From positions 1 through 27,222 of the forward strand of contig PDZS01000015.1 of the NCBI GenBank assembly GCA_002753225.1: DNA of 27,222 nucleotides, read 5' to 3'. Source of the DNA: Deltaproteobacteria bacterium YD0425bin51. GTDB lineage: Bacteria; Desulfobacterota; Desulfobacteria; Desulfobacterales; YD0425bin51. Positions 119 to 27,222 of the stretch are shown in pieces (the stretch's first letter is position 1; every line of letters begins with the position of its first letter). The translations under genes and the position numbers were made by a program. The notes under the pieces are model-generated. The model was not told the DNA's origin. It did not search any database and saw nothing but the letters and a program-made list of their open reading frames with translations.

Positions 119-1765
119 TTATTTCTTAAACCTTACTGCGAAACCCTGAATAGTACCAGTATCAAGTCCATGTAAAGGACGAATTGATGATATTCCATGC
201 ATAAAGTCAAAATAGAATGGTCTTCCATCATTAGTAATTTCAATAGACCATACTTCAAATCCCTGTAAATTTATATAAGGATTAATGTTTTTTTGACCAA
301 CTCCTTTTTGATAGAGAGATGCTAACTCTTCAACTGTCGGCATTCGCCACCCACCACCTTGAATATCCAAGTGTGAAATATAGATTTGTGCTTGATCACG
401 TAGACAAGAATAACCTTTTGGACATGCAATCCATTCAAGGTCAGTTAGTTTATCTAATACTACTCCATTTCCTTTTTGAAAAAAGCGATTAGGATCATTT
501 TTATCTAAAATTGGGGGAGCAAGTATTTGGTGATATTTGGGATCAGTAACAGGCAAAACCCTAGGGAAATTACCAACAATTTTTCTATGAGCGTCACGTT
601 TCCCTGTATTGAAATTAAAATAATAGGCAGCTTCTTCGCTTTCTACTTCATTGGACCATGGGCAGCATTCTCCAATATCAATAAGCTCTGTTACTGGAAA
701 ACCATGTTTATTTTTAGAGTTTGTATCATAAAGCGTAGATAATTCGTCTATGGTTGGGAGCCTCCAATGACTAAACCCGCCACCTCTAAAAGTTTTACAA
801 AATAAGTTGGCGTCCCACCAGGTTATTGCTTTCCCATTATCTTGGACAGCCCATATAAGACCAGTTTTAGTATCTAATACAGTTTCATTATTTTTTAATA
901 TAAAGCGATTATCTTTTGGTGTTTCATCCTGCTCAATATATTTCTGTTCAATTTTTAAATCAGGAACTTTTTCTTGTTTTTTTATAATAACAACTCCTCT
1001 TTGTTCTTCAGGATTAAAATAAAATTTACCTTTTAAACTTGTTGACTCCCAAGGAATTTGCTTTTTTTGTGATAATTCTTCAACAGATATGCGTACTTGT
1101 TTGAACATTTCCTCAATAGTAAGGCCAGGAGTTCGTATATGCTTTAAAATTGCAGAAGTATAAATTCCATTATTTTGAGAACCATCAGAAGCTGTTTTTC
1201 CAGGTGAAGTTGCATATGCAACAATAGATCCAGATGGAGCATCCATAAATGCTAAACCTTGTGATTTTACTCCTCTACTCCAGCTTCTTTCAAATGGGTT
1301 GTTTCGGCAGGCATCTAAAATAACAATATTTGTTTTTGATCCGGCATTTTCCATTTCAGAAAGTACTCTATCAGCACGTACACAATCGTATTCAACATCT
1401 TTTTCATTATCTAAAGCAGCATCAACTGGAATAAGATAGTTAATTCCATTTACTTGTATTCCATGACCTGCATAAAAAAATAATCCAATATCAAAATTTT
1501 TAAGTTTTTCACCAAATTCATCTATTGCTTTTTTCATGGCTTTTTGATCACAGTTGATGCGATCAATTACTACAAAGTTTAATTCTTTTAATGCTATTTT
1601 TATTCCCTTAACATCATTAACAGGATTTTTTAGTGTACCTCCATGAGTATAATTTGCATTACCCATAAGTAATGCAATTCGTTTTTCAGATGAAGCAATA
1701 CATGGTATTGCGGAAAAAATAACTGAAGCAAAAATAAGAGTTAATAAAGCAATTTTATTTTTCAT
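119..1765 (-). CDS. Secreted caspase-family (peptidase C14) protein with two C-terminal DUF1566 (Lcl C-terminal-like) domains
   Basis: The N-terminal signal peptide is MKNKIALLTLIFASVIFSAIPCIAS. The caspase His and Cys dyad motifs FFYAGHGIQV and IVILDACRNN are both present. Two C-terminal repeats (TGLIWAVQDNG...WDANLFC...GGGFSHWRLPTIDELSTLYD and TDLEWIACPKG...GGGWRMPTVEELASLYQ) carry the WR(L/M)PT-x-EL signature of DUF1566. Confidence 0.7.
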   Translation of the reverse strand: MKNKIALLTLIFASVIFSAIPCIASSEKRIALLMGNANYTHGGTLKNPVNDVKGIKIALKELNFVVIDRINCDQKAMKKAIDEFGEKLKNFDIGLFFYAGHGIQVNGINYLIPVDAALDNEKDVEYDCVRADRVLSEMENAGSKTNIVILDACRNNPFERSWSRGVKSQGLAFMDAPSGSIVAYATSPGKTASDGSQNNGIYTSAILKHIRTPGLTIEEMFKQVRISVEELSQKKQIPWESTSLKGKFYFNPEEQRGVVIIKKQEKVPDLKIEQKYIEQDETPKDNRFILKNNETVLDTKTGLIWAVQDNGKAITWWDANLFCKTFRGGGFSHWRLPTIDELSTLYDTNSKNKHGFPVTELIDIGECCPWSNEVESEEAAYYFNFNTGKRDAHRKIVGNFPRVLPVTDPKYHQILAPPILDKNDPNRFFQKGNGVVLDKLTDLEWIACPKGYSCLRDQAQIYISHLDIQGGGWRMPTVEELASLYQKGVGQKNINPYINLQGFEVWSIEITNDGRPFYFDFMHGISSIRPLHGLDTGTIQGFAVRFKK

Positions 1766-12824: not shown

Positions 12825-13553
12825 TTAAATTGGAACAATCTCTAAATCTCCCCATGCTCCTAGTTTATCATCTATTATAATAACTATTCCTATTATCCCA
12901 TTAATATTTTTACCTGATCTTATAGCTTTATCTATATCTTTTTTTGATTTAACCATATTACCAATTGCAGTAGCACAAGAATCAGCAAGAGAACATGAAT
13001 GAGATACTACGCATACAGCATCAGCCTTTCCAAAACTTAAAGATGGTCCAACCTTTCCTGATGATGTACAAACTGCCATAGGTTTGTTAATTGAATTGAT
13101 TTTAAGTCCTATATGCAGACTAAGTGGTGAATCTCCAGCAAAAATTCCTACAGTTGCTGGATTGTCTAATTTAAGGAATATATCTCCGCCATTTTCAACA
13201 ATAACTTGAGGGCTGTAGGGAAGAATGCCATAGCCAACATGTTCAGCAATTGCTCCTGCAACAGATGCCATAGGGCCTACTCCTGCTTTTTTTGATGATT
13301 CTGACATTTCAGAAACAATAATGTGAACAGGTTCATTTATTTCCCATGGGACAAGGGTTTTAGCAAAGGATGGGTATCTTTTTATATAATTTTCTAAATA
13401 CCCTCTATATTCTAATACCAGTTCTCTAGTTATATCTTCAAGTGGAATTATGGAATGGACATGCAAATCAGTTTCTTTTACAACAACTCTATACTTTATA
13501 AGGTCATTTTTTTTTATTAAATTGCGATATGTACGTTCTTTATATTTCTCCAT
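12825..13553 (-). CDS. UPF0280-like conserved protein (ApbE-like superfamily), function unknown
   Basis: The N-terminal YRNLIKKNDLIKYRVVVKETDLHV pattern and the Gly/Ser-rich core (GVGPMASVAGAIAE, CTSSGKVGPSLSFGKADAVCV) recall the UPF0280/COG2122 family, recognised from memory only. A 14-nt overlap with the upstream ATP-grasp gene. Confidence 0.4.
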   Translation of the reverse strand: MEKYKERTYRNLIKKNDLIKYRVVVKETDLHVHSIIPLEDITRELVLEYRGYLENYIKRYPSFAKTLVPWEINEPVHIIVSEMSESSKKAGVGPMASVAGAIAEHVGYGILPYSPQVIVENGGDIFLKLDNPATVGIFAGDSPLSLHIGLKINSINKPMAVCTSSGKVGPSLSFGKADAVCVVSHSCSLADSCATAIGNMVKSKKDIDKAIRSGKNINGIIGIVIIIDDKLGAWGDLEIVPI

Positions 13554-14322
13554 TTTTAATAAGACTATCCATGAGGTTTATATAATCTATTCCAAGTTTT
13601 TTTAATCCTTCATGCCCATATTTCATATTTGCTTCTATTACATAAGCTTTATCTTTATAAATACATATATCTATTCCCACATCATTCCAATTAGTTTTTT
13701 TTGCTGTATATAAAGCAAGCTCATTAACACTTTGAGGTATAGGATCAAAACTGATTTTTCCACCAAGCGATACATTTGTCCGAAACTCATTGTTTTGTGC
13801 TATTCTCCAGTAAGAACAAATGATTTTTTCCCCAATTATCAAAACTCTTATATCTCGATTAATTGGTAAATATTCTTGAATATATGCAACATGAGTTTTG
13901 GATAGATAAATATATAAATCATCATAATTTTTAATAAGAAAGACACCTGCTCCTTTTGCTGATCCCCGTGCAATTTTAGCTATAAAAGGAAATTCAAAGT
14001 AATCAGTAATTTTTTTTTTTTGTTTTGTGCCATAAAAAATTTTTGTTCTTGGATGAGGGATATCAAGTAATTCAAATAAAGCTGTTTGTTTAATTTTATC
14101 CTGTGCATAAGCATAATTGCTATAACTCGGGAAAATATTTTTTCCCATTGTATTAAACAACTCACCATAAAGGCTTGTTGGATAATATATTTTACTAGCT
14201 GATTTTATAAGAAAAGATATTTCCTGTGGGTAGTCAGATAAATTGGGAAAAACCCCAACTGTTATAACATTTTTACATTTCCTAAGTCTTGAACCTAAAG
14301 CAATTACATTATTTTGCATCAT
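13540..14322 (-). CDS. RimK-like ATP-grasp ligase (glutamate-ligase family), substrate unknown
   Basis: The ATP-grasp motifs FPFIAKIARGSAKGAGVFLI, YIQEYLPINRDIRVLIIGEKII and FRTNVSLGGKI. 260 aa. The CDS contains an A12 homopolymer. Confidence 0.65.
   Translation of the reverse strand: MMQNNVIALGSRLRKCKNVITVGVFPNLSDYPQEISFLIKSASKIYYPTSLYGELFNTMGKNIFPSYSNYAYAQDKIKQTALFELLDIPHPRTKIFYGTKQKKKITDYFEFPFIAKIARGSAKGAGVFLIKNYDDLYIYLSKTHVAYIQEYLPINRDIRVLIIGEKIICSYWRIAQNNEFRTNVSLGGKISFDPIPQSVNELALYTAKKTNWNDVGIDICIYKDKAYVIEANMKYGHEGLKKLGIDYINLMDSLIKNGEI
14010..14021. repeat. A12/T12 homopolymer inside the RimK-like ATP-grasp CDS (encodes K-Q-KKK)
   Basis: Twelve consecutive T on the plus strand (A on the coding strand). 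The tract is in frame in the current sequence. Confidence 0.7.
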
Positions 14323-16810: not shown

Positions 16811-17779
16811 TTATTCAGAAAAAGTGCCATTATTATATAAATCAAAATCAGGTATTTCCCGTTTAAAAAAATCGCGCATTTTATTTATTAAATTTTGTTC
16901 AATTTGACGCACTCTCTCTCTTGAAATTCCATATCGGTCTCCCATTTCTTGAAGTGTAATGGGATCATCTGAGAATACTCGCTGTTCAAACAATTCAATC
17001 TCTCTTTTAGTCAGCTTCTTTTTAAATTCATCAATTTTAGAGTAAAGAAGTTTATCCATTTCTTTTTTAGCCATTTGGTCTTCAATTGATTTAGCATCTG
17101 TTGATAAAAATTCTATTCTCTCAGTGTCTGAATCTTCCTTCAGAGGAGCATCTAATGATATATCCCAGCTATCTAACCTTTGATCCATGTCAATGACTTC
17201 ACGTTCAGGAACACCTAATCTCTCTGAAAGAAGCTTAGGTTTTGGATCAAATCCTTCTTCTATTAACTTTTGTTTTTCTTTTTTGAGTCTAAAAAAAAGT
17301 TTACGCTGTCCCTGAGTTGTTCCAATTTTTACAAGCCTCCAGTTATCCATAATAAATTTAAGAATATAGGCTTTTATCCAGAATGAAGCATAATATGAAA
17401 ATTTAACACCTTTATAGGGGTTAAATTTTTTAGCAGCTTGTATAAGGCCAATATTTCCTTCTTGAATTAAATCTAGAAGGTTGTGCATCCAAACCTTTTG
17501 AAATTCCAAAGCTATTTTAACAACTAATCTAAGATTAGAAACAATTAAAGTATAGGCTGCCTCCTTATCTTCATTTTCAAAAACGCTCATTGCAAGCTTG
17601 TTTTCTTGTTCTCTTGTAAGAAGTTTATAATTACTTATTTCAGATAGATAACGCTGTAGGGGATCATATTTAATAATTGCAGTTTCATATATTTTCTTTT
17701 CTGGCTGAATATAATTATAATCTTCATTTGATTCTAAAGCAGAATTGTTTTCCAAGTCATTGTTTCTATTTTTTTCCAT
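16811..17779 (-). CDS. rpoH: RNA polymerase sigma-32 (heat-shock) factor RpoH
   Basis: Sigma-70 region 2 (LIVSNLRLVVKIALEF...GNIGLIQAAKKFNPYKGVKFSYYASFWIKAYI). An RpoH-box-like QRKLFFRLKK. Region 4 HTH ITLQEMGDRYGISRERVRQIEQNLINKMR. 322 aa. Confidence 0.8.
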   Translation of the reverse strand: MEKNRNNDLENNSALESNEDYNYIQPEKKIYETAIIKYDPLQRYLSEISNYKLLTREQENKLAMSVFENEDKEAAYTLIVSNLRLVVKIALEFQKVWMHNLLDLIQEGNIGLIQAAKKFNPYKGVKFSYYASFWIKAYILKFIMDNWRLVKIGTTQGQRKLFFRLKKEKQKLIEEGFDPKPKLLSERLGVPEREVIDMDQRLDSWDISLDAPLKEDSDTERIEFLSTDAKSIEDQMAKKEMDKLLYSKIDEFKKKLTKREIELFEQRVFSDDPITLQEMGDRYGISRERVRQIEQNLINKMRDFFKREIPDFDLYNNGTFSE

Positions 17780-17867: not shown

Positions 17868-17941
<74 letters not shown>

Positions 17942-17953
17942 CTTACAAAATCA

Positions 17954-17988
17954 AGGGTTTACAGAATGTAATCTGTAAACCTTTTTTG
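17954..17988 (+). terminator. Rho-independent terminator downstream of tRNA-Arg
   Basis: A GGGTTTACAG - loop (aatgtaat) - CTGTAAACC stem followed by TTTTTT. Confidence 0.65.
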
Positions 17989-18200: not shown

Positions 18201-18262
18201 AAAAAGCCCCCAATAGAAAAATATGCAGTAGTTTCCTATTTTTTGTATTGGGGGCTTTTACA
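18201..18262. terminator. Long GC-clamped hairpin flanked by an A-tract and a T-tract (bidirectional terminator-like, with no obvious gene to terminate)
   Basis: aaaaaGCCCCCAATAGAAAAATA-tgcagtagtttcc-TATTTTTTGTATTGGGGGCtttt forms a 10-bp perfect GC-rich stem extended to about 18 bp with one mismatch. The extended-stem loop is 13 nt. Confidence 0.5.
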
Positions 18263-18370: not shown

Positions 18371-18411
18371 TAAAACAGGTGAATGGGCACATATAAGTTA
18401 AATTGGAAAAT

Positions 18412-18418
18412 AAGGAGG
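18412..18418 (+). promoter_or_regulatory. Shine-Dalgarno site (AAGGAGG) for the ATP-grasp-GH3 gene
   Basis: A perfect AAGGAGG 6 nt upstream of the ATG at 18425. This supports 18425 rather than 18383 as the start. Confidence 0.6.
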
Positions 18419-18424
18419 TTTTTT

Positions 18425-21001
18425 ATGTACGGCTGGATACTACATGATAATACTGAAATCGCAGAGATTAAAAGGGCTACTGACGAAGCTGCCAAAGCTA
18501 ATGTCACTATTGAATTGGTTTATCCTAAGGATATTGAATTGATTTTAGAACATTCTTATGATGGGGTAATTTACGTAAGAGGTGTGAAAAAACAATTGCC
18601 TGAGTTTGCTATTGCAGCTTTTTTGAACGAAGTTGACTACTATAATCTTGCGATTCTTCGTCAGTTAGAGACATTAGGTGTTCTTTGTATAAATACAGCA
18701 GATGCCATATTAAACTCAAGCGATAAACTTTTGACCTCACAGCTTTTGATATCACATAACATACCTGTTGCAAAAACCGCTTTACTGCGGGCTAATTCAG
18801 ATTTGGAAATTTTAGAATCTGAGATTGGTTTACCTATGATAGCAAAGGTTATGAATGGAAGTAAAGGAAAAGGAGTCATTCTTATACAGACAAAAGCTGA
18901 GTTAAAGAATCTCTTAGAGCTTTATGTAGCCGGAGGTTTTAGAAGTGAAATTTTACTTCAGACGTATATAGCTTCCAGCAAGGGTAAGGATTTACGAGTA
19001 TTTATAATAGGCGGTAAAGCATTGGCCTGTTTCATTAGGCAAAACGCCAGTGATGGATTTAAGTCCAACATTTCAGTAGGAGGATTTGGCTCTCCGCATC
19101 CTCTAACAGATTCTATCAAAAAAATAGCTGAAAAAGTTGCTAAAATTCTTGGTTTGAATATGGCAGGAATTGATCTTATGTTTGGACCAGATGGCTATAT
19201 TGTTGGAGAGGCTAATTCACTCCCTGGTTTCCAGGGGTTGGAGGCTGCTACAGGGATTAATGTTCCGGTCAACGCCTTGTTTAGTATTGCTGGGCAATTG
19301 ATTTCTCGTCCTGCTCCACCATGGCGCATTAAGCAAATATTTTCAGAATCTATGAAAATGCCGATGCCGGAAGTTCTTTTACATCAGTCTAAAACTATAC
19401 TGCCTGGTGTTGCACGTTCTTTGTTCAATCACTGCCAAGAGGCTCAAAATATTGTATTGTTTAATATTATTAATTTTTGCCGAGATACTGAATTCGGCAA
19501 AGGGCATAATTTTTATGATATTAAATCGATCGATGATTTCCGAGAACGAGTACCTATATCAAGCTGGCCAGATTATGAGATCTATGCACAACGAATGGCA
19601 AATGGGGAGAAAAATATTCTTTTCCCTGGTGCTCCAGAGTATTTTATAACTACATCAGGGACTACATCTAATAAATTAAAAATGATTCCAGAGAGTAATT
19701 ATGGTGCTATTGCCAAAAAGGCTATATCGTTGGTTAGGCGGAATTTACTTTTTTCTCTGTTTCATGATATAGGTAAGTTAGGTCATTTTTTTGCACTTTC
19801 GAATTCTTCAAACCTTTCAGTTACTCCTGCAGGTATTCCTATTGGTTTTGCTTCTGGAATTACCAGATCACAGGTTGATGCATCTTTATCATCTTTAGAT
19901 GCTTATCCATCTGAAATCCTGAACATTTCAGATAATGAAAGTGTTGATTATCTTATCATGCGTTTTGCTCTTCATCACAAAGACATGATGGCTTTAATCG
20001 GTAATAATGCTGGACGGATGAGAGTGCTTGCCGATTATGCGCAAGAGCATGCAGAAGAGATTATTTCCGATATAGAGAAAGGAACAATCAGTAAAAGATT
20101 ATCCATCTCTGCAGAAGAAAGGAGATTGCTTGAAGAAAAATTAAAGCCTTCCCCTGAAAGGGCAGCTGAATTAAGAGATATTATAAAGAAAAACAATGGT
20201 GGATTTCTCCCCAAACATTATTGGCCTCAAATTCGTTTAGCTTGTTTCTGGCTGTCAAGTACAGTAGGCAATTACATAGATGATATACGTCCTTTGTTAA
20301 ACGATAGCGTTATATATATGGATGCAGGGTATGGTTCAAGTGAATTGAAGATCAATATCCCTATGAAACCTAATGAATCTTTTGCTCCAATAGCTCCATT
20401 TGTAGCATTTTTTGAGTTTTTGCCAATTGGTGGAATAAAGCCTCTACTTGCACATGAGCTAACCGATGGTTCTATGTATGAACTTATAATAACTACATAT
20501 TCAGGACTATACCGATATAATATTCAAGATTTAGTTAAAGTATGCGGTTTTACAGGCAATACTCCTAATATAGAATTTGTTATTAAAAGTATAGAGGTAG
20601 CTAATATTTCTGATGAAAAGATACCGGGATCAGTTATTAATTCATGTGTAAGAGAAACTGCAAGCTCCATAGGTATATCTATTAAGCAGTGTCAGGTATA
20701 TCCAGATCAGGATGCACGTAGATATGTTTTTCTTATCGAACCAGAAGGAACTACTTCTAATTTCCCAGTTGATGAATTTCTTATAATCTTGGATAAAACT
20801 CTTAAGGAACAGCATATGGCTTATAGAGTATTTAGAGGACAAAAGCTCATTCATCAACCAGTTATTAGAATTATGCGTCAAGGATGGCAGGAAAGTCTTT
20901 ATCGTGAGAAAATTAAGCCAGGAATTACAACTTCACAAATTAAATTGCCATATATTATTAGCCTTTTGCCTGATCCTACATGGTTTTTAAAAGGGGAATA
21001 A
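18425..21001 (+). CDS. Fusion protein: N-terminal RimK-type ATP-grasp ligase + C-terminal GH3-family adenylate-forming acyl-acid amido synthetase
   Basis: The ATP-grasp motifs GLPMIAKVMNGSKGKGVILIQT, DLRVFIIGGKALACFIRQNASDGFKSNISVGGFGSP and GIDLMFGPDGYIVGEANSLPGFQGLE. The GH3 motifs FRERVPISSWPDYEIYAQRMANGEKNILFPGAPEYFITTSGTTSNKLKMIP (adenylation P-loop-like motif), YMDAGYGSSE (the YxSSE motif) and YRYNIQDLVKVCGF (the YRYR-GD-like motif). 859 aa from the SD-supported ATG. Confidence 0.75.
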   Translation: MYGWILHDNTEIAEIKRATDEAAKANVTIELVYPKDIELILEHSYDGVIYVRGVKKQLPEFAIAAFLNEVDYYNLAILRQLETLGVLCINTADAILNSSDKLLTSQLLISHNIPVAKTALLRANSDLEILESEIGLPMIAKVMNGSKGKGVILIQTKAELKNLLELYVAGGFRSEILLQTYIASSKGKDLRVFIIGGKALACFIRQNASDGFKSNISVGGFGSPHPLTDSIKKIAEKVAKILGLNMAGIDLMFGPDGYIVGEANSLPGFQGLEAATGINVPVNALFSIAGQLISRPAPPWRIKQIFSESMKMPMPEVLLHQSKTILPGVARSLFNHCQEAQNIVLFNIINFCRDTEFGKGHNFYDIKSIDDFRERVPISSWPDYEIYAQRMANGEKNILFPGAPEYFITTSGTTSNKLKMIPESNYGAIAKKAISLVRRNLLFSLFHDIGKLGHFFALSNSSNLSVTPAGIPIGFASGITRSQVDASLSSLDAYPSEILNISDNESVDYLIMRFALHHKDMMALIGNNAGRMRVLADYAQEHAEEIISDIEKGTISKRLSISAEERRLLEEKLKPSPERAAELRDIIKKNNGGFLPKHYWPQIRLACFWLSSTVGNYIDDIRPLLNDSVIYMDAGYGSSELKINIPMKPNESFAPIAPFVAFFEFLPIGGIKPLLAHELTDGSMYELIITTYSGLYRYNIQDLVKVCGFTGNTPNIEFVIKSIEVANISDEKIPGSVINSCVRETASSIGISIKQCQVYPDQDARRYVFLIEPEGTTSNFPVDEFLIILDKTLKEQHMAYRVFRGQKLIHQPVIRIMRQGWQESLYREKIKPGITTSQIKLPYIISLLPDPTWFLKGE

Positions 21002-21003
21002 TT

Positions 21004-22512
21004 ATGAAAAAAGAAAAATGGAACAATAATCATTTTCACATTAAAGTTCCTAACTCTTTAAATTCCATACCAATTGTACAGTCATTTATCAAAAGTTGTG
21101 CTTTGATAATGGATTTTAAGGAACCAGAATTGACTCATTTGGAAATTGTTGCTGAGGAACTAAGCACTAATATTCTTCAACATGCTTACAGATCTGATGA
21201 ATTGGCTAACTTCACCATTGATTGCATACTTAACGTAGATCAGCTGGAAATTATTTTTCGAGATCAAGGACGTCCATTTGATCCTGAGCATTTGCCAGAT
21301 TTTTCGGGTATTGATCCGTCAACTCTTGATGCTCCTGCTGGTTTAGGACTCTATCTTTCTGCCCGTCTCGTGGATCTATTTAATGCAAGAAATCTAGGCT
21401 CCATGGGGAAAGAGATTCGCCTCATTAAAAGGCTTAAAGGCTCTTGGCAATTATCAAAAGAACCTGATGGTTTCCGTCAGATACAGACTTTATATCGCAA
21501 GGAAGATTTTGATATGGTGCAGGTTCGTTCTATGCGTCCTGAAGAAGCTATACAGGTTTCGAGGTTAATTTATGATGTCTATCACTATACCTATATGTCA
21601 GAAATCCCTTATAATCCACATAGACTTAGACAACTGCAAGAAGATGGACGTCTTTACTCCTTTGTAGCAGTTTTGGGAAATGGAGTTGTCGCATCTCATG
21701 TTGCCCTTCAGATTTCACCTGATATGCCAAGACTTGGAGAATATTGTCTTGCCGCTACTTTACCAGAAGCAAGAGGTTATAAATTGGCTGAAAAGGTTGG
21801 TTTAGCTCTTTTAGAGACTGTTATGGGGTTGGGGATAACTGGACTTTATGCTAATTTCACAACAGTCCATACAATTTCACAGCGAAAAAGACAGGGACTT
21901 GGAACTGCTGTAGGATTCTTGTTGGCTCGAAGTCCTGAAACTCTTCAAATGAAAGATATTCTTGAAACAGCCCCACAGAGAGTTTCCACTTTATTGATGT
22001 TTCAGAGCTTAGTTGAACGTGAACCTGTTATCGTATATATTCCTGAACAACATAGAGATTTTATATCTGATATATATTGCCGTTGTAAACTTCCTGTGAA
22101 ATTTGATACTAAAGTTACCGATCTTCCAGATATTAATAGCCAATTGGAGATTTTAATTGAGAAGGAGCGTAATATTGCTAAATTATCGGTGATAGAAGCT
22201 GGGAGGGATTTATTGCCTCAGATCAAGGAACGCCTTTTCGGCTTGCGTCTGAATAATACTTCGGTAGTTTTCTCTTTTTTGAACCTTATGGATCCCCATA
22301 CTCCAAAAGTAGCAGCTATACTTGAAGAAATGGGATTTTTTATAACTGGAGTTTTGCCTTTAGGGATAGGTATTAATGATGCATTGCTGATGACATGTCT
22401 TATTAACTGCGCTCTGGATTATGACAAGATTGAACTTTTTGACAAAGAAAGTAAAGATCTTCTTAATTATGTTCGAAGACAAGATCCTTCTTTACCAAAG
22501 CTATTATTATGA
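21004..22512 (+). CDS. Multidomain protein: RsbW/SpoIIAB-like HATPase (anti-sigma-factor kinase-like) N-terminal domain fused to GNAT-like acyltransferase domain(s)
   Basis: The start ATG is 2 nt after the upstream stop, giving translational coupling. The N-terminus has IVAEELSTNILQHAY and a G2-box-like GLGLYLSARLVDLF, as in HATPase_c_2. The middle has VQVRSMRPEEAIQVSRLIYDVYH...YSFVAVLGNGVVASHVAL...LPEARGYKLAEKVGLALLE, consistent with a GNAT fold and motif A. The C-terminal ~170 aa are unassigned and may be a second acyltransferase-like half. Confidence 0.5.
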   Translation: MKKEKWNNNHFHIKVPNSLNSIPIVQSFIKSCALIMDFKEPELTHLEIVAEELSTNILQHAYRSDELANFTIDCILNVDQLEIIFRDQGRPFDPEHLPDFSGIDPSTLDAPAGLGLYLSARLVDLFNARNLGSMGKEIRLIKRLKGSWQLSKEPDGFRQIQTLYRKEDFDMVQVRSMRPEEAIQVSRLIYDVYHYTYMSEIPYNPHRLRQLQEDGRLYSFVAVLGNGVVASHVALQISPDMPRLGEYCLAATLPEARGYKLAEKVGLALLETVMGLGITGLYANFTTVHTISQRKRQGLGTAVGFLLARSPETLQMKDILETAPQRVSTLLMFQSLVEREPVIVYIPEQHRDFISDIYCRCKLPVKFDTKVTDLPDINSQLEILIEKERNIAKLSVIEAGRDLLPQIKERLFGLRLNNTSVVFSFLNLMDPHTPKVAAILEEMGFFITGVLPLGIGINDALLMTCLINCALDYDKIELFDKESKDLLNYVRRQDPSLPKLLL

Positions 22513-22532
22513 ATGGAAAGGTAATATAGATT

Positions 22533-23753
22533 ATGTCTGGATTGTTAAGTGTATTTAGAGAACGTAATTATTCTTTTTTCTTTACCGGACAAGCTTTATC
22601 GTTTATCGGAAATTGGATGCAGAGTACCACATTTAACTGGCTTCTATATCAATTTACTGATTCGCCTTTCCTTCTGGGGTCTATGAGTGCTGCTATAAAC
22701 ATTCCATTACTAATTTTAATTCCATATGCTGGTTCTATGGTTGATAGATTTGACCATAGGAGACTACTTTTATTTTTACAGACAATCTTCATGATCCATG
22801 CTTCACTCCTTGGAGCGCTTGCTTATTTTGATTTATTGAATTTGACATTAATTGTTGCTATGGGATGCATTCAAAGTTTTTTAAATGCTTTCGATGGTCC
22901 TGCTAGGCAGGCTTTAGTTCCTCAATTGCTGAATGATCGCAGTAAAATGCCTGCAGCAATAGCACTTAACTCAGTAATGGTAAATACTACCCGTACTTTT
23001 GGACCTCCTTTAGCAGGTTGGATACTGACTAAAAACAGTTCTGTATCTTGCTTTCTACTAAATGCTTTAAGCTATTTTTTTATGTTATTAGCTTTGATGG
23101 CACTTCAATTCAGTAACTCTGATAATAAAGGCAAACATAGGGAATATACGAGTGCTTTAGATAATCTGCTGTTTATTGTTAGTCTCCCATCGCTGAGATA
23201 TCTGTTTATATCTTATATAGTTGTTGCTGTGGCAACAATGTCTGTTTATGTTCTGCTGCCAATCTGGTCTGCTGATATACTAAAAGCTGGTCCACAGGGA
23301 TTAGGTTTGATGATGGGAGGGATTGGAGCAGGGGCTTTACTTGGAGCTATTATTGTAGGTTCCCAAAGTAACCAAGTCCGTTTATGGCTATTATTTCGTT
23401 ATTCCTCTTTACTGCTGGGATTTGCTTTAATATTGATTTCTTCTATAAATGGTATTACCCCTATTATCATGGTTACTGTAATGCTAGGTATGGCATATAT
23501 AGGACAAAGTGTTGCTGCAAACACACTTCTTCAGATGAGTGTTGATGATTCTCGTCGCGGTGGCATCATGGCATTCTATCTACTTGTTGCATTTGGTTCT
23601 ATACCAGTTGGCAATGTTTTAGGTGGGTGGCTTGGACATATCATTGGATTGAAAGGTGCAGCTATGACAGCAGGTATAACAGTTTTGATCTCCATTTTTT
23701 TTCTTTGGAGAACTAGTAGCAGAGTTATGCAATTAGTATTCAAAGAAAACTGA
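22533..23753 (+). CDS. MFS transporter (EntS/MFS_3-like putative exporter)
   Basis: A 406-aa protein with ~12 hydrophobic segments. The N-terminal FFFTGQALSFIGNWMQ and the loop motif SMVDRFDHRRLL (the MFS D-R-x-x-R-R-like motif between TM2 and TM3). An RBS-like GGAAAGG lies upstream of the ATG. Confidence 0.8.
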   Translation: MSGLLSVFRERNYSFFFTGQALSFIGNWMQSTTFNWLLYQFTDSPFLLGSMSAAINIPLLILIPYAGSMVDRFDHRRLLLFLQTIFMIHASLLGALAYFDLLNLTLIVAMGCIQSFLNAFDGPARQALVPQLLNDRSKMPAAIALNSVMVNTTRTFGPPLAGWILTKNSSVSCFLLNALSYFFMLLALMALQFSNSDNKGKHREYTSALDNLLFIVSLPSLRYLFISYIVVAVATMSVYVLLPIWSADILKAGPQGLGLMMGGIGAGALLGAIIVGSQSNQVRLWLLFRYSSLLLGFALILISSINGITPIIMVTVMLGMAYIGQSVAANTLLQMSVDDSRRGGIMAFYLLVAFGSIPVGNVLGGWLGHIIGLKGAAMTAGITVLISIFFLWRTSSRVMQLVFKEN

Positions 23754-23784
23754 CAGTATTATTTTACTATTCAGTGTATTTACG

Positions 23785-24477
23785 ATGAAAAATAAAAAGG
23801 CTAATATTTTAGTAATTGAAGATGACATGGCAATTTGTCGTGGATTATTAGACGTTTTAGTATTTAATGGATATGAAGCAGAAGGTTCATTTGATGGCAA
23901 AGAAGGCTTTAAAAAGGGATTAGAAGGCAAATATGACCTTATTATGTTAGATGTTATGCTTCCAAATATGGATGGTTTTACTATTTGTCGAGAAATAAGA
24001 AAGAAAAAACCAAAACAACCAATTATTATGATAACAGCAAAAGGATCTGAAGATGATATTATAGCTGGATTTAAGGCTGGAGCAGATGATTATGTACCCA
24101 AGCCATTTTCATTAAGAGAACTCATGGTTAGAGTTGAAGCTATTTTGAGACGTAGTGGAAAAAATATAGGGGATGAGCAAATAGAATATCTCGGTATATT
24201 TTTTGACGGAAAAACCCTTAATGCAAAATATCAAGGAAAAATTATTGAAATGACAAGAAGAGAAATGGATATAATATTTTACTTGTATAAAAACAATGAT
24301 CGTATTGTATCCAAAAAAGAGCTTTTATCTTCCATCTGGGGATATCAAAATCCTGACATAGAAACTCGTACAGTTGATATTCATATGTTAAAACTTAGGA
24401 AAAAGATTATTGATTTAACCAATATTCAATCCTTTATCGCAACTATACGTGGTGAAGGATATAGATTAGAATTATAA
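23785..24477 (+). CDS. OmpR/PhoB-family DNA-binding response regulator
   Basis: The REC domain (ILVIEDDMAICRGL...LIMLDVMLPNMDG...IIMITAKG) plus a winged-helix output (TVDIHMLKLRKKI...GEGYRLE). Confidence 0.88.
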   Translation: MKNKKANILVIEDDMAICRGLLDVLVFNGYEAEGSFDGKEGFKKGLEGKYDLIMLDVMLPNMDGFTICREIRKKKPKQPIIMITAKGSEDDIIAGFKAGADDYVPKPFSLRELMVRVEAILRRSGKNIGDEQIEYLGIFFDGKTLNAKYQGKIIEMTRREMDIIFYLYKNNDRIVSKKELLSSIWGYQNPDIETRTVDIHMLKLRKKIIDLTNIQSFIATIRGEGYRLEL

Positions 24478-24480
24478 TAT

Positions 24481-26280
24481 TTGAAAAAATTACTCATATT
24501 AATAATTATTTTCTGCCTTTTTTTATCAATACCACTTTACTATTTTATCTTACGAACATATTTAAGCCTTGAACAAGAAGAGGTTTCAAAATTCAGATAT
24601 TTTGGAGAAACTCTTTTCGATCAAATGGAGGGTTTTCTTGCTGAATTAGTTGTTAAAGAGGAAAGTAGAGCAGTCGATGAATACAATTATTATTATAACC
24701 CTAAAGGGTTATCTTCTGTCATTTCACCTCTTTCAAAACTTCCTTATCCTTATTATATAATAGGATATTTACAAAATAATCCAGATGGCTCTTTTGAAAC
24801 CCCTGTTCTTGAAAAAAGACAAAATATCCCACCAAATTTAGCTTCTCTAATTACAAAGCTTACTGATGTAAATAATTCTTTTAATTCAAAAAGAGCTTCT
24901 ATTATTCATGAAAATATTGAAGCTCCCAGTCAGTCTTATACTGTTGCATCTAAAGAAGTAAAAAAAGATGAAAGTTTTGGAGGTAAATTTTTAGATTTTT
25001 CAAGATCTCAAAAGCAAAAGGTATATTTAGGTCAAGAAGAGAAAAGAGTTGAAGAAATTCCAGCATCTCAAGCGTTAAACCTTTCAAAACAGGAACAAAA
25101 TTATCCGCAAAATGAGATCATAAAAGGCGAAATCTATCATAATCAGGCAGAAATAACTCCAATGCAGTCATTAATTATAAATAATAGTGAAATTTTTATT
25201 TTCAGAAGAATTATGATAGCTAATAAAATATATAGACAGGGATTTGTTATTAATGCAAAAGCATTTTTAAATAATTTAGCAAATCTATATTTTAATGGAC
25301 AGCCAATGGCAAATTTTACTGGTTTAAAACTAAATATAAGTGACAGAGGTTATGAAATCTCATCATTTTTTTCTGGTGTTCAAATCAAAAACCTCAATTT
25401 TTCATTAAAGAGAGTATTCGGCCGTCCATTTTCTTTTCTGTCAGCAACATTATTATGTGAAGATATCCCAAAATCTTCTGGAAGAAAAACCTTAAACATT
25501 ATGATGATTATTTTGAATGCAATAATTTTTATAGGGATGTTTACAATTTATAAGAGTGCAAAAACAGTAATGGATTTATCTAATAAAAAAGCTAGCTTTG
25601 TTTCTTCTGTAACCCATGAGCTTAAAACTCCGCTTACAAATATTCGTATGTATATTGAAATGCTAGAACAGGGTATTGCAGGAAATATTGAACGTGAAGC
25701 AGAATATTTCCATATTTTGGAGAATGAGACTAGCAGGCTTTCACGTTTAATTAACAATGTATTGGAATTTTCGAAAATAGAACAAAAGCGATTTGATATT
25801 AAAGAAGGAACTTTTGATGATGTAATAAAAGATGTTTACGAAATAATGGGTAAAAGTCTTAGAAAGGAAGGTTTTATTTTTAAGATCAATTTAGATTCCC
25901 ATAGATTTTCATATGATCGTGAAGTTATGATTCAGGTAATGATAAATCTAATAGAAAACAGTATAAAATTTGGAACAGATGGAAATTTAAAAGAAATTGT
26001 GGTTAATATAAGACCTTATAAAAAGTGGATCAAAATAAGTGTATCAGATACAGGACAAGGTATTCCAGCAAAGGAGCTAACCAAAATATTTAATGATTTT
26101 TATCGGGCTGAAAATGCTAAAAATAAAAGAGGAACAGGTATTGGGTTAGCTTTGGTGAAAAAGCTTATTATAGGTATGGGAGGCCGGGTGTATGCAAAAA
26201 ATAATGAAAAAACACCCGGCTGCACAATAACTCTTATGCTTCCTAATATTTCCCAAACTCATTATCGTCAAGAGGTATGA
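24481..26280 (+). CDS. Sensor histidine kinase with a large periplasmic sensing domain (TM - ~300-aa periplasmic - TM - HisKA - HATPase_c)
   Basis: The TTG start lies two codons after the regulator stop, in the same frame. TM1 is LLILIIIFCLFLSIPLYYFIL and TM2 is TLNIMMIILNAIIFIGMFTIY. The H-box is FVSSVTHELKTPLTNIRMYIEM, the N-box MINLIENSIKFG, and the G-boxes DTGQGIP and GTGIGLALVKKLIIGMGG. Confidence 0.8.
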   Translation: MKKLLILIIIFCLFLSIPLYYFILRTYLSLEQEEVSKFRYFGETLFDQMEGFLAELVVKEESRAVDEYNYYYNPKGLSSVISPLSKLPYPYYIIGYLQNNPDGSFETPVLEKRQNIPPNLASLITKLTDVNNSFNSKRASIIHENIEAPSQSYTVASKEVKKDESFGGKFLDFSRSQKQKVYLGQEEKRVEEIPASQALNLSKQEQNYPQNEIIKGEIYHNQAEITPMQSLIINNSEIFIFRRIMIANKIYRQGFVINAKAFLNNLANLYFNGQPMANFTGLKLNISDRGYEISSFFSGVQIKNLNFSLKRVFGRPFSFLSATLLCEDIPKSSGRKTLNIMMIILNAIIFIGMFTIYKSAKTVMDLSNKKASFVSSVTHELKTPLTNIRMYIEMLEQGIAGNIEREAEYFHILENETSRLSRLINNVLEFSKIEQKRFDIKEGTFDDVIKDVYEIMGKSLRKEGFIFKINLDSHRFSYDREVMIQVMINLIENSIKFGTDGNLKEIVVNIRPYKKWIKISVSDTGQGIPAKELTKIFNDFYRAENAKNKRGTGIGLALVKKLIIGMGGRVYAKNNEKTPGCTITLMLPNISQTHYRQEV

Positions 26281-27222
26281 TATCTTCAGGATCAGATAAA
26301 TCAGTGGGAGCTGGCAGTTTTTTTACTTGTTGTTTAACTTTATGTTCTATAATTAAGTTTTGAGCTGCTTTTTTAGGAGTATAATCTTTTTTAAATTCTT
26401 TTGATTTCTTTACTTCTTTTACTTCTTCTATTTTAACTGTTTTTGCTTTTTTTACTTCTTTTACTTCTTTTAATTTAAATTTAGAAAGTAAAGTTTTTAC
26501 ATTATTAGCGTGTGATGAAAACTGTTGAGCTGTTGCAGAAGTAGCTTCAGCATTTGCAGTATTTTGATTTGTTATACTGTCTATTTGGCTTATACCTTGG
26601 TTGATTTGTCCTATTCCAAGAGCCTGTTCATTGCTTGCTGAAGCTATTTCGGTCATTATAGTTGCAACTTTTTTAATGTCTTCATTAATTTCATCTAATG
26701 CTCTTCCTGTATCTCCAGCAATAGCTGCTCCTTTTTCTATTTTTTGAATAGCATTTTCTATAAGATTAGCTGTTTCTTGCGCTGCTTTACCAGATCTTGA
26801 AGCAAGATTCCTGACTTCCTGGGCTACTACTGAAAATCCTTTTCCATGTTTTCCTGCCCTTGCTGCTTCAATTGCTGCATTTAAAGATAAAAGATTTGTC
26901 TGGAAAGCTATTTCATCAATAGCTTTCATGATTTTGCTGATTTCTTTACTTGATTCACTTATCTCACCCATGGCAGAAATCATTTCTTTTACCTGAACAA
27001 CGCCATTTTGAGCAGCGTTACATGCACTAGCTGATAGTTTGTTTGCTTCAGAAGCATTGTCAGCATTTGTTTTTGTTTGTGAGGCTAATTCTGTCATAGA
27101 ACTGCTTATTTCTTCAATAGAAGCAGCTTGAGTCGAAGCTCCTTGAGATAGTGAATTGCTAGAATTTGAAAGGTGGGAAGCTCCTGATGCTACTTGATCC
27201 ATCGACATATAAACTTCGCTGA
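26243..27222 (-). CDS. Methyl-accepting chemotaxis protein, C-terminal portion (N-terminal sensing part lies beyond the window end)
   Basis: The MCP signalling-domain core [41 protein letters not shown]. The frame remains open upstream of the first Met to the window edge. The C-terminal K/E/V-rich repeat tail is [28 protein letters not shown]. The gene overlaps the kinase gene 3' end convergently by 38 nt. Confidence 0.75.
26405..26475. repeat. Tandem short repeats (unit ~TACTTCTTTT) encoding the KEVKEVKK tail of the MCP
   Basis: ttctttacttcttttacttcttctattttaactgtttttgctttttttacttcttttacttcttttaa. The repeats can be seen directly in the sequence. Confidence 0.6.

Follow-up and report, generated by a model that had tools for sequence, protein, structure and literature searches.

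An RsbW-type ATP-binding domain joined to a predicted GNAT acyltransferase and a GNAT-like domain, encoded beside ligase and exporter genes in a Desulfobacterales bacterium

In a 27,222-nucleotide (nt) stretch of Deltaproteobacteria bacterium YD0425bin51 (contig PDZS01000015.1, positions 1 to 27,222; the whole of it is called here the window), we found a gene whose product of 502 amino acids (aa) joins an RsbW-like ATP-binding domain, a GNAT domain and a third domain of GNAT-like layout. This three-domain architecture is confirmed. After a tRNA-Arg(TCT) and a terminator hairpin, closely spaced genes follow one another on the same strand, and the fusion gene comes second among them. The first of these genes encodes a RimK-GH3 ligase fusion and the third an MFS_3 transporter, and these three genes are referred to below as the cassette.

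The protein and its three domains

The fusion gene and the parts of its product are as follows.

21004-22512 (+): open reading frame (ORF) of 502 aa, with an RsbW-like HATPase_c_2 domain, a GNAT domain and a GNAT-like C-terminal domain (ORF list, Pfam, alignment and AlphaFold 2 (AF2) model)
21031-21429 (+): RsbW/SpoIIAB-type GHKL ATP-binding domain, residues 10-142 (Pfam, RsbW alignment)
21445-21483 (+): linker, residues 148-160 (predicted local distance difference test (pLDDT) below 50 in the AF2 model; variable in the homolog alignment)
21496-22008 (+): predicted GNAT acyl-CoA N-acyltransferase domain, residues 165-335 (fold from the AF2 model)
21769-21816 (+): GNAT motif A (CoA pyrophosphate loop), residues 256-271, ARGYKLAEKVGLALLE (beta4/alpha3 junction in the AF2 model)
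22021-22488 (+): alpha/beta domain with GNAT-like element order, residues 340-495 (AF2 secondary structure)

The automatic ORF listing puts the gene at 20980-22512 (+), with a longer 5' end. We prefer the start at 21004 because a Shine-Dalgarno sequence (AAGGGGA, 20991-20997) lies 7 nt before it, the stop codon of the upstream GH3 gene (20999-21001) is placed 2 nt ahead of it, and 10 of the 11 full-length homologs start at a Met aligned with it. The structure was predicted by AF2 from an alignment of 124 sequences, taken from a profile search of cluster representatives, and the resulting model has three domains, with a pLDDT of 92.7 and a predicted template modelling score (pTM) of 0.89; the 12 close homologs alone gave a pLDDT of 56 and an unusable model. 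The linker between the first two domains is weakly conserved and modelled as disordered, and the pTM of the three-domain chain suggests that the kinase-like domain packs against the GNAT module.

The N-terminal domain matches PF13581 (HATPase_c_2) at residues 16-142 with an E-value of 1.5e-14 and 54.5 bits, against a gathering threshold of 27.4, and the profile is matched over its full length (positions 2-127 of 127). RsbW of B. subtilis (6m36) aligns to this domain at E 8e-11. In that alignment the N box (E52-x3-N56), the G1 box (D87-Q-G89-R-P91-F-D93) and the G2 box (G113-L-G115-L-Y-L) coincide with RsbW residues, and the ATP-lid segment between G1 and G2 is nearly gapless. The alignment of close homologs indicates that the ATP-binding boxes are intact in this protein and invariant in its clade. 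Across 124 diverse members of the family, to which all conservation values given here refer, conservation is 98% for each of G89 and P91 in the G1 box, 70% for the N-box Asn and 70-75% for the G2 glycines. The best NCBIfam matches are RsbW (NF003144, 41.1 bits against a cut-off of 145) and SpoIIAB (24.1 bits against 135), both far under the equivalog cut-offs. These scores place the protein in the HATPase_c_2 domain family but outside the orthologs of RsbW and SpoIIAB.

In domain 2, the model presents the GNAT order of elements (beta1-alpha1-alpha2-beta2-4-alpha3-beta5-alpha4-beta6). Its motif A reads R257-G-Y-K260-L-A262, in which the Arg and the final Ala are kept and Lys stands in place of the first Gly; the canonical R-G-x-G is the consensus of the family here, with R257 in 95% of the members and Gly at position 260 in 65%. 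Y203, H289 and Q293 are invariant in the family, Y193, Y195, Y197, P205, H232 and R257 are conserved in at least 90%, and E246 in 87%. Most distant relatives carry a precomputed match to PF00583 (Acetyltransf_1). The top Foldseek matches among GNAT structures are tabtoxin-resistance protein and acetyltransferases of the phosphinothricin, arsinothricin and methionine-sulfoximine type, at 15-18% identity; no NCBIfam or Pfam model of the phosphinothricin/tabtoxin acetyltransferase families is matched, and the likeness is at fold level only. Pat/AcuA-type NCBIfam models gave no match at E<=1. Going by the modelled fold, the protein belongs to the GNAT superfamily and to no characterised GNAT subfamily, and the best reading of a GNAT domain with a CoA-binding loop is a predicted acyl-CoA N-acyltransferase.

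The C-terminal ~160 aa form a separate domain that is modelled with confidence. Its elements follow the order beta-alpha-beta-beta-beta-alpha-beta-alpha-beta-beta, like a GNAT minus alpha2. Domain 3 is without the CoA loop of motif A, since its beta4 is followed by G400-x-D and not by R/Q-x-x-G-x-G, and it aligns with domain 2 in hhalign in register but weakly (E 0.014, probability 3%). It has a signature of its own, GFFFxG(I/V)LPG, of which G444, F445, G449 and P452 are at least 90% conserved. Profile searches of the C-terminal module and of domain 3 alone against PDB sequences found no meaningful relative, and the matches of a word-indexed search with domain 3 were gene fragments only. On the strength of the model, domain 3 is probably a second GNAT domain.

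The original prediction, made from the sequence alone, had placed an RsbW/SpoIIAB-type HATPase domain, a GNAT domain and a further C-terminal domain in one protein of 503 aa. Apart from the length, which is 502 aa, this stands. The PF13581 match above its cut-off, the RsbW match and the N, G1 and G2 residues speak for the first domain, in which the ATP-lid and nucleotide-binding residues are present and the lid is aligned almost without gaps. The predicted structure gives three domains, with a GNAT fold in the middle region and a distinct modelled alpha/beta domain after it.

The family and its gene neighbourhoods

Residues 165-502 were used as a profile against 1.8 billion cluster representatives (50%-identity clusters). 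This C-terminal module gave 2005 matches at E<=1e-3, of which at least 501 reach E<=1e-30. Almost all matches are ~500 aa long with the module at about 165-500. A further search gave 621 proteins at E<=1e-20, mostly with precomputed PF13581 and PF00583. The members are mostly from Thermodesulfobacteriota. In this sense the architecture, first taken to be unusual, is not rare, as the family is large and keeps a constant layout. Most of the shorter matches are truncated gene calls, and P0086, P0110 and P0137 may be tandem GNAT modules that truly lack the HATPase domain. Conservation peaks in the G1 box, in the GNAT domain and in the domain 3 signature, and no other part of the protein is as well conserved as the 340-aa GNAT module, for which neither Pfam nor NCBIfam has a model. 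Automatic annotation already picks up the fusion, as the database names show: members are called 'GNAT family N-acetyltransferase' (Desulfomonile tiedjei, Desulfomonilaceae, Thermodesulfobacteriota), 'ATP-binding protein' and, by JGI, 'anti-sigma regulatory factor (Ser/Thr protein kinase)/GNAT superfamily N-acetyltransferase'. In our literature search, neither a description of a fusion of HATPase_c_2/RsbW, or of partner switching, with a GNAT acetyltransferase nor a study of a family member was found; in sequence databases, however, this combination is common.

The following features surround the fusion gene in the window.

18383-21001 (+): ORF that joins a RimK-family ATP-grasp ligase (residues 18-296) to a complete GH3 acyl-acid amido synthetase (348-859) (Pfam, TIGR00768)
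22533-23753 (+): MFS_3 (EntS-like) transporter (PF05977, 1.8e-49), 20 nt past the stop codon of the fusion gene
23785-24477 (+): OmpR-type response regulator, downstream of MFS_3 on the same strand
24481-26280 (+): histidine kinase, after the OmpR-type regulator on the same strand
17868-17984: tRNA-Arg(TCT) and terminator hairpin, directly upstream of the cassette
16811-17779 (other strand): sigma-70-family gene, 3.2 kb upstream, beyond the tRNA and terminator

The RimK-GH3 ORF matches GH3 (6.8e-60) and RimK (4e-35) in Pfam, its RimK half scores 192.7 bits with TIGR00768 against a cut-off of 143.4, and its true start is likely about 18426, after AGGAGG. The intergenic gaps, 2 nt between this ORF and the fusion gene and 20 nt between the latter and MFS_3, come with Shine-Dalgarno sites, and the three genes are predicted to be co-transcribed as an operon. 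The response regulator and the histidine kinase are possibly co-transcribed with the cassette; this pair was not found at the related loci L001-L010, L095 and L106. No PP2C gene was found in the window. A second, short (260-aa) RimK-like ATP-grasp ORF occurs at 13540-14322 (-), in a minus-strand operon with DUF4292 and large TPR proteins.

Close relatives (48-68% identity) occur at 11 distinct loci, the window included, from metagenome-assembled genomes of Desulfobacterales, Competibacteraceae and Riflebacteria and from metagenomes, and 9 of these loci have enough flank. The gene orders are as follows.

Window: RimK-GH3 fusion, then the fusion gene, then MFS_3
L106: fusion gene convergent with an operon MFS_3 - GH3 - GH3 - RimK
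L007: STAS gene divergent, 107 nt upstream; fusion gene - GH3 - MFS_3
L008 and L098: fusion gene - GH3, then the contig end
L095: fusion gene - GH3; gene for a 453-aa protein on the opposite strand; MFS_3
L006, L002 group and L001: fusion gene; gene for the 453-aa (389-aa in the L002 group) protein on the opposite strand; MFS_3
L010: fusion gene - MFS_3, nothing else of the cassette
L105 (closest homolog, P0002, 68% identity): fusion gene alone

MFS_3 stands beside the fusion gene in 8 of the 9 loci with enough flank, L105 being the exception. GH3 is present in 6 of the 11 loci (Pfam-confirmed in L007, L095 and L106), in two of these six together with RimK, and the 453-aa protein in 4 of the 11. 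By these gene orders, the EntS-like MFS_3 is the constant partner of the fusion gene in this clade, and the ATP-dependent carboxylate-amine ligases GH3 and RimK and the 453-aa protein are variable ones. The MFS protein of L106 shares 58.5% identity with that of the window, and the identity to the matching half of the RimK-GH3 fusion is 43.7% for GH3a of L106 and 37.9% for its RimK. We argue that RimK and GH3 work together, since they are fused in the window and separate neighbours in L106. From its distribution, the cassette appears to move between phyla.

The 453-aa protein (L006:9527-10888(-), L001:4958-6319(-), L095:3574-4935(-) and L002:9758-10927(-)) has no Pfam match and gave nothing meaningful in a profile search against PDB sequences. 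It has a faint RimK-type NCBIfam signal (E 7.6e-4), and its 'E-x-N..PGG' motif stands before its 'KPxxGxGGxGV' motif. As a lead only, it may be ATP-grasp-like and perhaps circularly permuted. Two further neighbours were not counted in the cassette: an ordinary type I GlnA glutamine synthetase 22 nt upstream in L001, which is a single case, and a large modular polyketide synthase of the L002 group (L002:2-7927, +), whose gene stops 74 nt before the homolog and whose adjacency, seen in one lineage only, may be coincidental. The modules of this synthase are MT-KR-ACP-KS-DH-ER-KR-ACP, and no AT domain was detected in the available part.

For distant relatives (25-33% identity), 80 metagenome loci and long contigs were analysed. 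Many distant members stand alone among housekeeping genes, for example in the ClC/SPOR/PBP1 clade. A gene for a SpoIIM-like membrane protein lies directly upstream in 6 loci (L050, L053, L055, L056, L099 and L104), and one for an MptA_B/GT87-like membrane protein in 5 (L101-L103, L060 and L061); the upstream gene often overlaps the family member, and this context hints at an envelope-related role in these clades. Acyl-activating enzymes (PaaK-like, LuxC-AMP-binding, LuxE or GH3) overlap or abut the gene in L016, L087, L089 and L091; a PaaK-like CoA ligase or LuxC-AMP-binding gene overlaps its start in L016 and L087, and LuxE comes after it in L091. A carboxyltransferase gene is found downstream in 2 distant loci.

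Genes for STAS proteins and/or stand-alone RsbW adjoin about 10 loci, including those of the close homologs in L007 and L008. L016 has a full SpoIIE-STAS-RsbW set within the same operon, STAS genes are located within 0.03-0.6 kb in L075 and L069, and the neighbouring STAS proteins retain the phosphorylatable serine motif 'ISSAGLR'. Because STAS genes recur beside family members, a partner-switching input is likelier than a small-molecule kinase. In addition, two genes that adjoin distant members (L069:9555-10772(+) and L084:5170-6384(-)) encode products of 404-405 aa in which a STAS domain at the N-terminus is followed by an unassigned part of ~290 aa.

Predicted function and competing explanations

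Enzymes of the RimK family add glutamate, GH3 enzymes couple acyl acids with amino acids, and RsbW-type domains phosphorylate or bind STAS proteins, not small molecules. Tentatively, we propose as the best of the readings that the gene product is a cytoplasmic, signal-gated acyl-CoA N-acyltransferase that works with the ligases on an exported small molecule; this is a possible reading rather than a probable one. The GH3 and RimK ligases would build an amino-acid-derived amide, probably a glutamyl-containing one, the GNAT domain would use acyl-CoA to acylate an amine of this compound or of its precursor, and MFS_3 would carry the product out of the cell. The RsbW-like domain would not act on the small molecule. 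It would bind ATP and a STAS-type partner, which it may phosphorylate, and so act as a regulatory switch, opening or closing the acyltransferase. We infer such a switch role by likening the domain to the sensors of other sensor-GNAT fusions. The acyl-CoA supply in distant members counts for this proposal, because CoA ligase, LuxC and LuxE genes overlap or follow the gene. A bolder version, which we regard as quite unlikely, is a new class of partner-switching output, in which the RsbW-type domain would hold not a sigma factor but its own tandem GNAT in cis until a dephosphorylated STAS protein frees it, so that the pathway would switch an acyltransferase directly. In this clade the amide made by GH3 and RimK would then leave the cell as a novel N-acylated metabolite of glutamyl type.

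Some known pathways may serve for comparison. Ngg makes N-acetylglutaminylglutamine amide in bacteria, and NAT8L with RIMKLA/B makes N-acetylaspartylglutamate (NAAG). They resemble the present case in pairing an acyl-CoA N-acyltransferase with a RimK-family glutamate ligase, and the RimK half of the upstream gene weakly matches the Ngg model TIGR03103. This is a lead only, as there is no orthology between Ngg and the genes described here, and GH3 and MFS_3 are not part of the Ngg and NAAG pathways. Bacterial GH3 enzymes are, to our knowledge, almost unexplored. One of them, OlsH, is a lyso-ornithine lipid synthetase, so that bacterial GH3 can make N-acyl amino acids (PMC12493201). OlsH is the sole NCBIfam GH3 match of the neighbouring GH3, at 69-104 bits against a cut-off of 620. 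However, OlsH operons hold OlsG and OlsI and not a GNAT or MFS_3 gene as here (PMC12493201).

Several points weigh against our proposal. In this protein K260 replaces the first glycine of motif A, and PF00583 scores 14.1 bits against a threshold of 20.7. Some family members may be pseudokinases, given that the N-box Asn is kept in 70%. There is no STAS gene among the ORFs of the window. Around the closest homolog, P0002, no exporter or ligase was found within 6-8 kb, and most distant members are alone or beside unrelated membrane proteins (SpoIIM-like, MptA_B/GT87-like). The link to ligase and exporter is clade-specific, yet the acceptor-side residues are conserved family-wide, so that a common substrate fits better than cassette-specific metabolites. 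A functional link to the upstream ligase, on whose product the original prediction had suggested that the protein might act, is supported in part by the gene neighbourhoods: GH3 or GH3 with RimK occurs at 6 of the 11 close loci, but the association is confined to this clade, is missing at the closest homolog and gives way to other partners in most distant members.

The main competing reading is a regulatory protein lysine acetyltransferase following the logic of Pat, AcuA or MtPat, which would act on a protein, most plausibly a neighbouring adenylate-forming enzyme or STAS protein, and use the RsbW-like domain as its sensor. We consider this unlikely. Sensor-domain-GNAT fusions are a hallmark of bacterial protein acetyltransferases, whose classical targets are AMP-forming ligases (Pat/Acs, AcuA/AcsA, Rv0998), and they are known with cNMP (cyclic nucleotide), ACT or acyl-CoA-synthetase-like sensors. 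In agreement, ANL-type genes (GH3, LuxE, AMP-binding) recur beside close and distant members, the acceptor-side residues are kept although the neighbours change, and many members stand alone, as Pat-type enzymes often do. The likeness to Salmonella Pat, M. tuberculosis Rv0998/MtPat (cNMP sensor) and the actinobacterial ACT-GNAT AAPatA lies in a regulatory or ligand-binding domain placed N-terminal to the GNAT and in the genomic association with AMP-forming ligases, whereas a GHKL kinase-type sensor, as seen here, is not reported for them (PMC6434083). Our protein differs from these enzymes in its extra C-terminal GNAT-like domain, no membership by sequence was detected, and a protein substrate is putative here. 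Moreover, no Pat/AcuA NCBIfam model is matched, the most constant partner in the clade is an exporter and not a ligase (L010 has the exporter only), and the SpoIIM-like and GT87-like partners of other members are not ANL enzymes.

It is also conceivable, if improbable, that the HATPase is a non-catalytic scaffold, either a pseudokinase or a dimerisation module, that takes no part in signalling, and that the protein is a constitutive two-GNAT acyltransferase. The incomplete conservation of the N-box Asn and the G2 glycines (70-75%), the few apparently HATPase-less tandem GNAT versions (P0086, P0110 and P0137) and the absence of STAS genes from most loci are in line with this. Against it stand the ATP-binding boxes, all intact and invariant in the clade of this protein, the 98% conservation of G89 and P91, and the recurrence of STAS and RsbW genes nearby. 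MshD, Eis and VipF are likewise tandem GNATs with one degenerate domain; here the active domain would come first and the degenerate one second, and domain 3 is without sequence relatives.

The fold likeness to tabtoxin-resistance, phosphinothricin, arsinothricin and methionine-sulfoximine-type acetyltransferases raises another idea, to which we give only a slight chance: self-protection or detoxification, in which the GNAT (as in TTR, PAT/BAR, MddA and ArsN) would inactivate a toxic amino-acid-like compound, either a product of the ligases or one taken up from outside, and the MFS protein would pump it out. Ligase, GNAT and MFS exporter together resemble small peptide-antimetabolite clusters, such as those of tabtoxin, bacilysin and dapdiamide, and a type I glutamine synthetase gene lies 22 nt upstream in L001. 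Nevertheless, that glnA adjacency was seen once, no NCBIfam resistance model is matched, no warhead-biosynthesis genes are present, and we know of no resistance GNAT with a fused RsbW domain or a second GNAT-like domain.

Finally, a true anti-sigma factor that sequesters a sigma factor, for example the product of the sigma-70-family gene at 16811-17779, with the GNAT as an accessory, is very improbable and was rejected: despite the RsbW/SpoIIAB likeness in fold and sequence and that gene 3.2 kb upstream on the other strand, the score is 41 bits against an equivalog cut-off of 145, the sigma gene is parted from the cassette by the tRNA and terminator and is not conserved in the related loci examined, among which a full-length sigma gene recurs nowhere (L105 has a 114-aa ORF with a Sigma70_r4 match near the homolog), and conservation is highest in the GNAT module. 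RsbW and SpoIIAB are in addition stand-alone proteins of 140-160 aa, whereas the domain here is the N-terminus of a 502-aa protein, and an ortholog would be expected to share its operon with its cognate sigma factor and a STAS antagonist, whereas the operon of the window is without a sigma or STAS gene.

The known targets of partner-switching modules of the RsbW/RsbV/RsbU type are mostly sigma factors, with a few other proteins besides, and in the Rv1364c-type protein (PDB 3ke6) RsbW is fused to RsbU and STAS signalling domains and not to a metabolic enzyme. An RsbW-type domain coupled directly to an acyltransferase, in hundreds of clusters, would link the themes of partner switching and sensor-GNATs, and would offer a simple system to test, with one protein, ATP, a STAS partner and an acyl-CoA. 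Besides, the cassette of three or four genes (GH3, RimK, GNAT fusion, MFS exporter) may make a so far undescribed exported compound. This significance is limited in that the architecture already shows in automatic annotation and any unusual chemistry or mechanism is putative.

Other features of the window

A leader of 440 nt before the cassette contains, at ~18206-18255, a hairpin, CCCCAATA...TATTGGGG, followed by a T-run; no Rfam match above noise was found for a riboswitch or leader RNA there. The GC content of the cassette (0.35-0.38 at 19001-24000) is slightly higher than that of the flanks (about 0.26-0.33). Together with the adjacent tRNA-Arg this gives a hint only of a genomic-island origin, which was not retained as a search gave no tRNA-derived direct repeat. 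Far from the cassette, the ORF at 119-1765 (-) encodes a protein that combines a caspase (Peptidase_C14) and an Lcl_C domain. Near the other end of the window, the gene at 26243-27208 (-) codes for a protein that has a methyl-accepting chemotaxis signalling domain and, in its C-terminal tail, KEVKEVKK repeats encoded by a 42-nt tandem repeat at 26385-26468.

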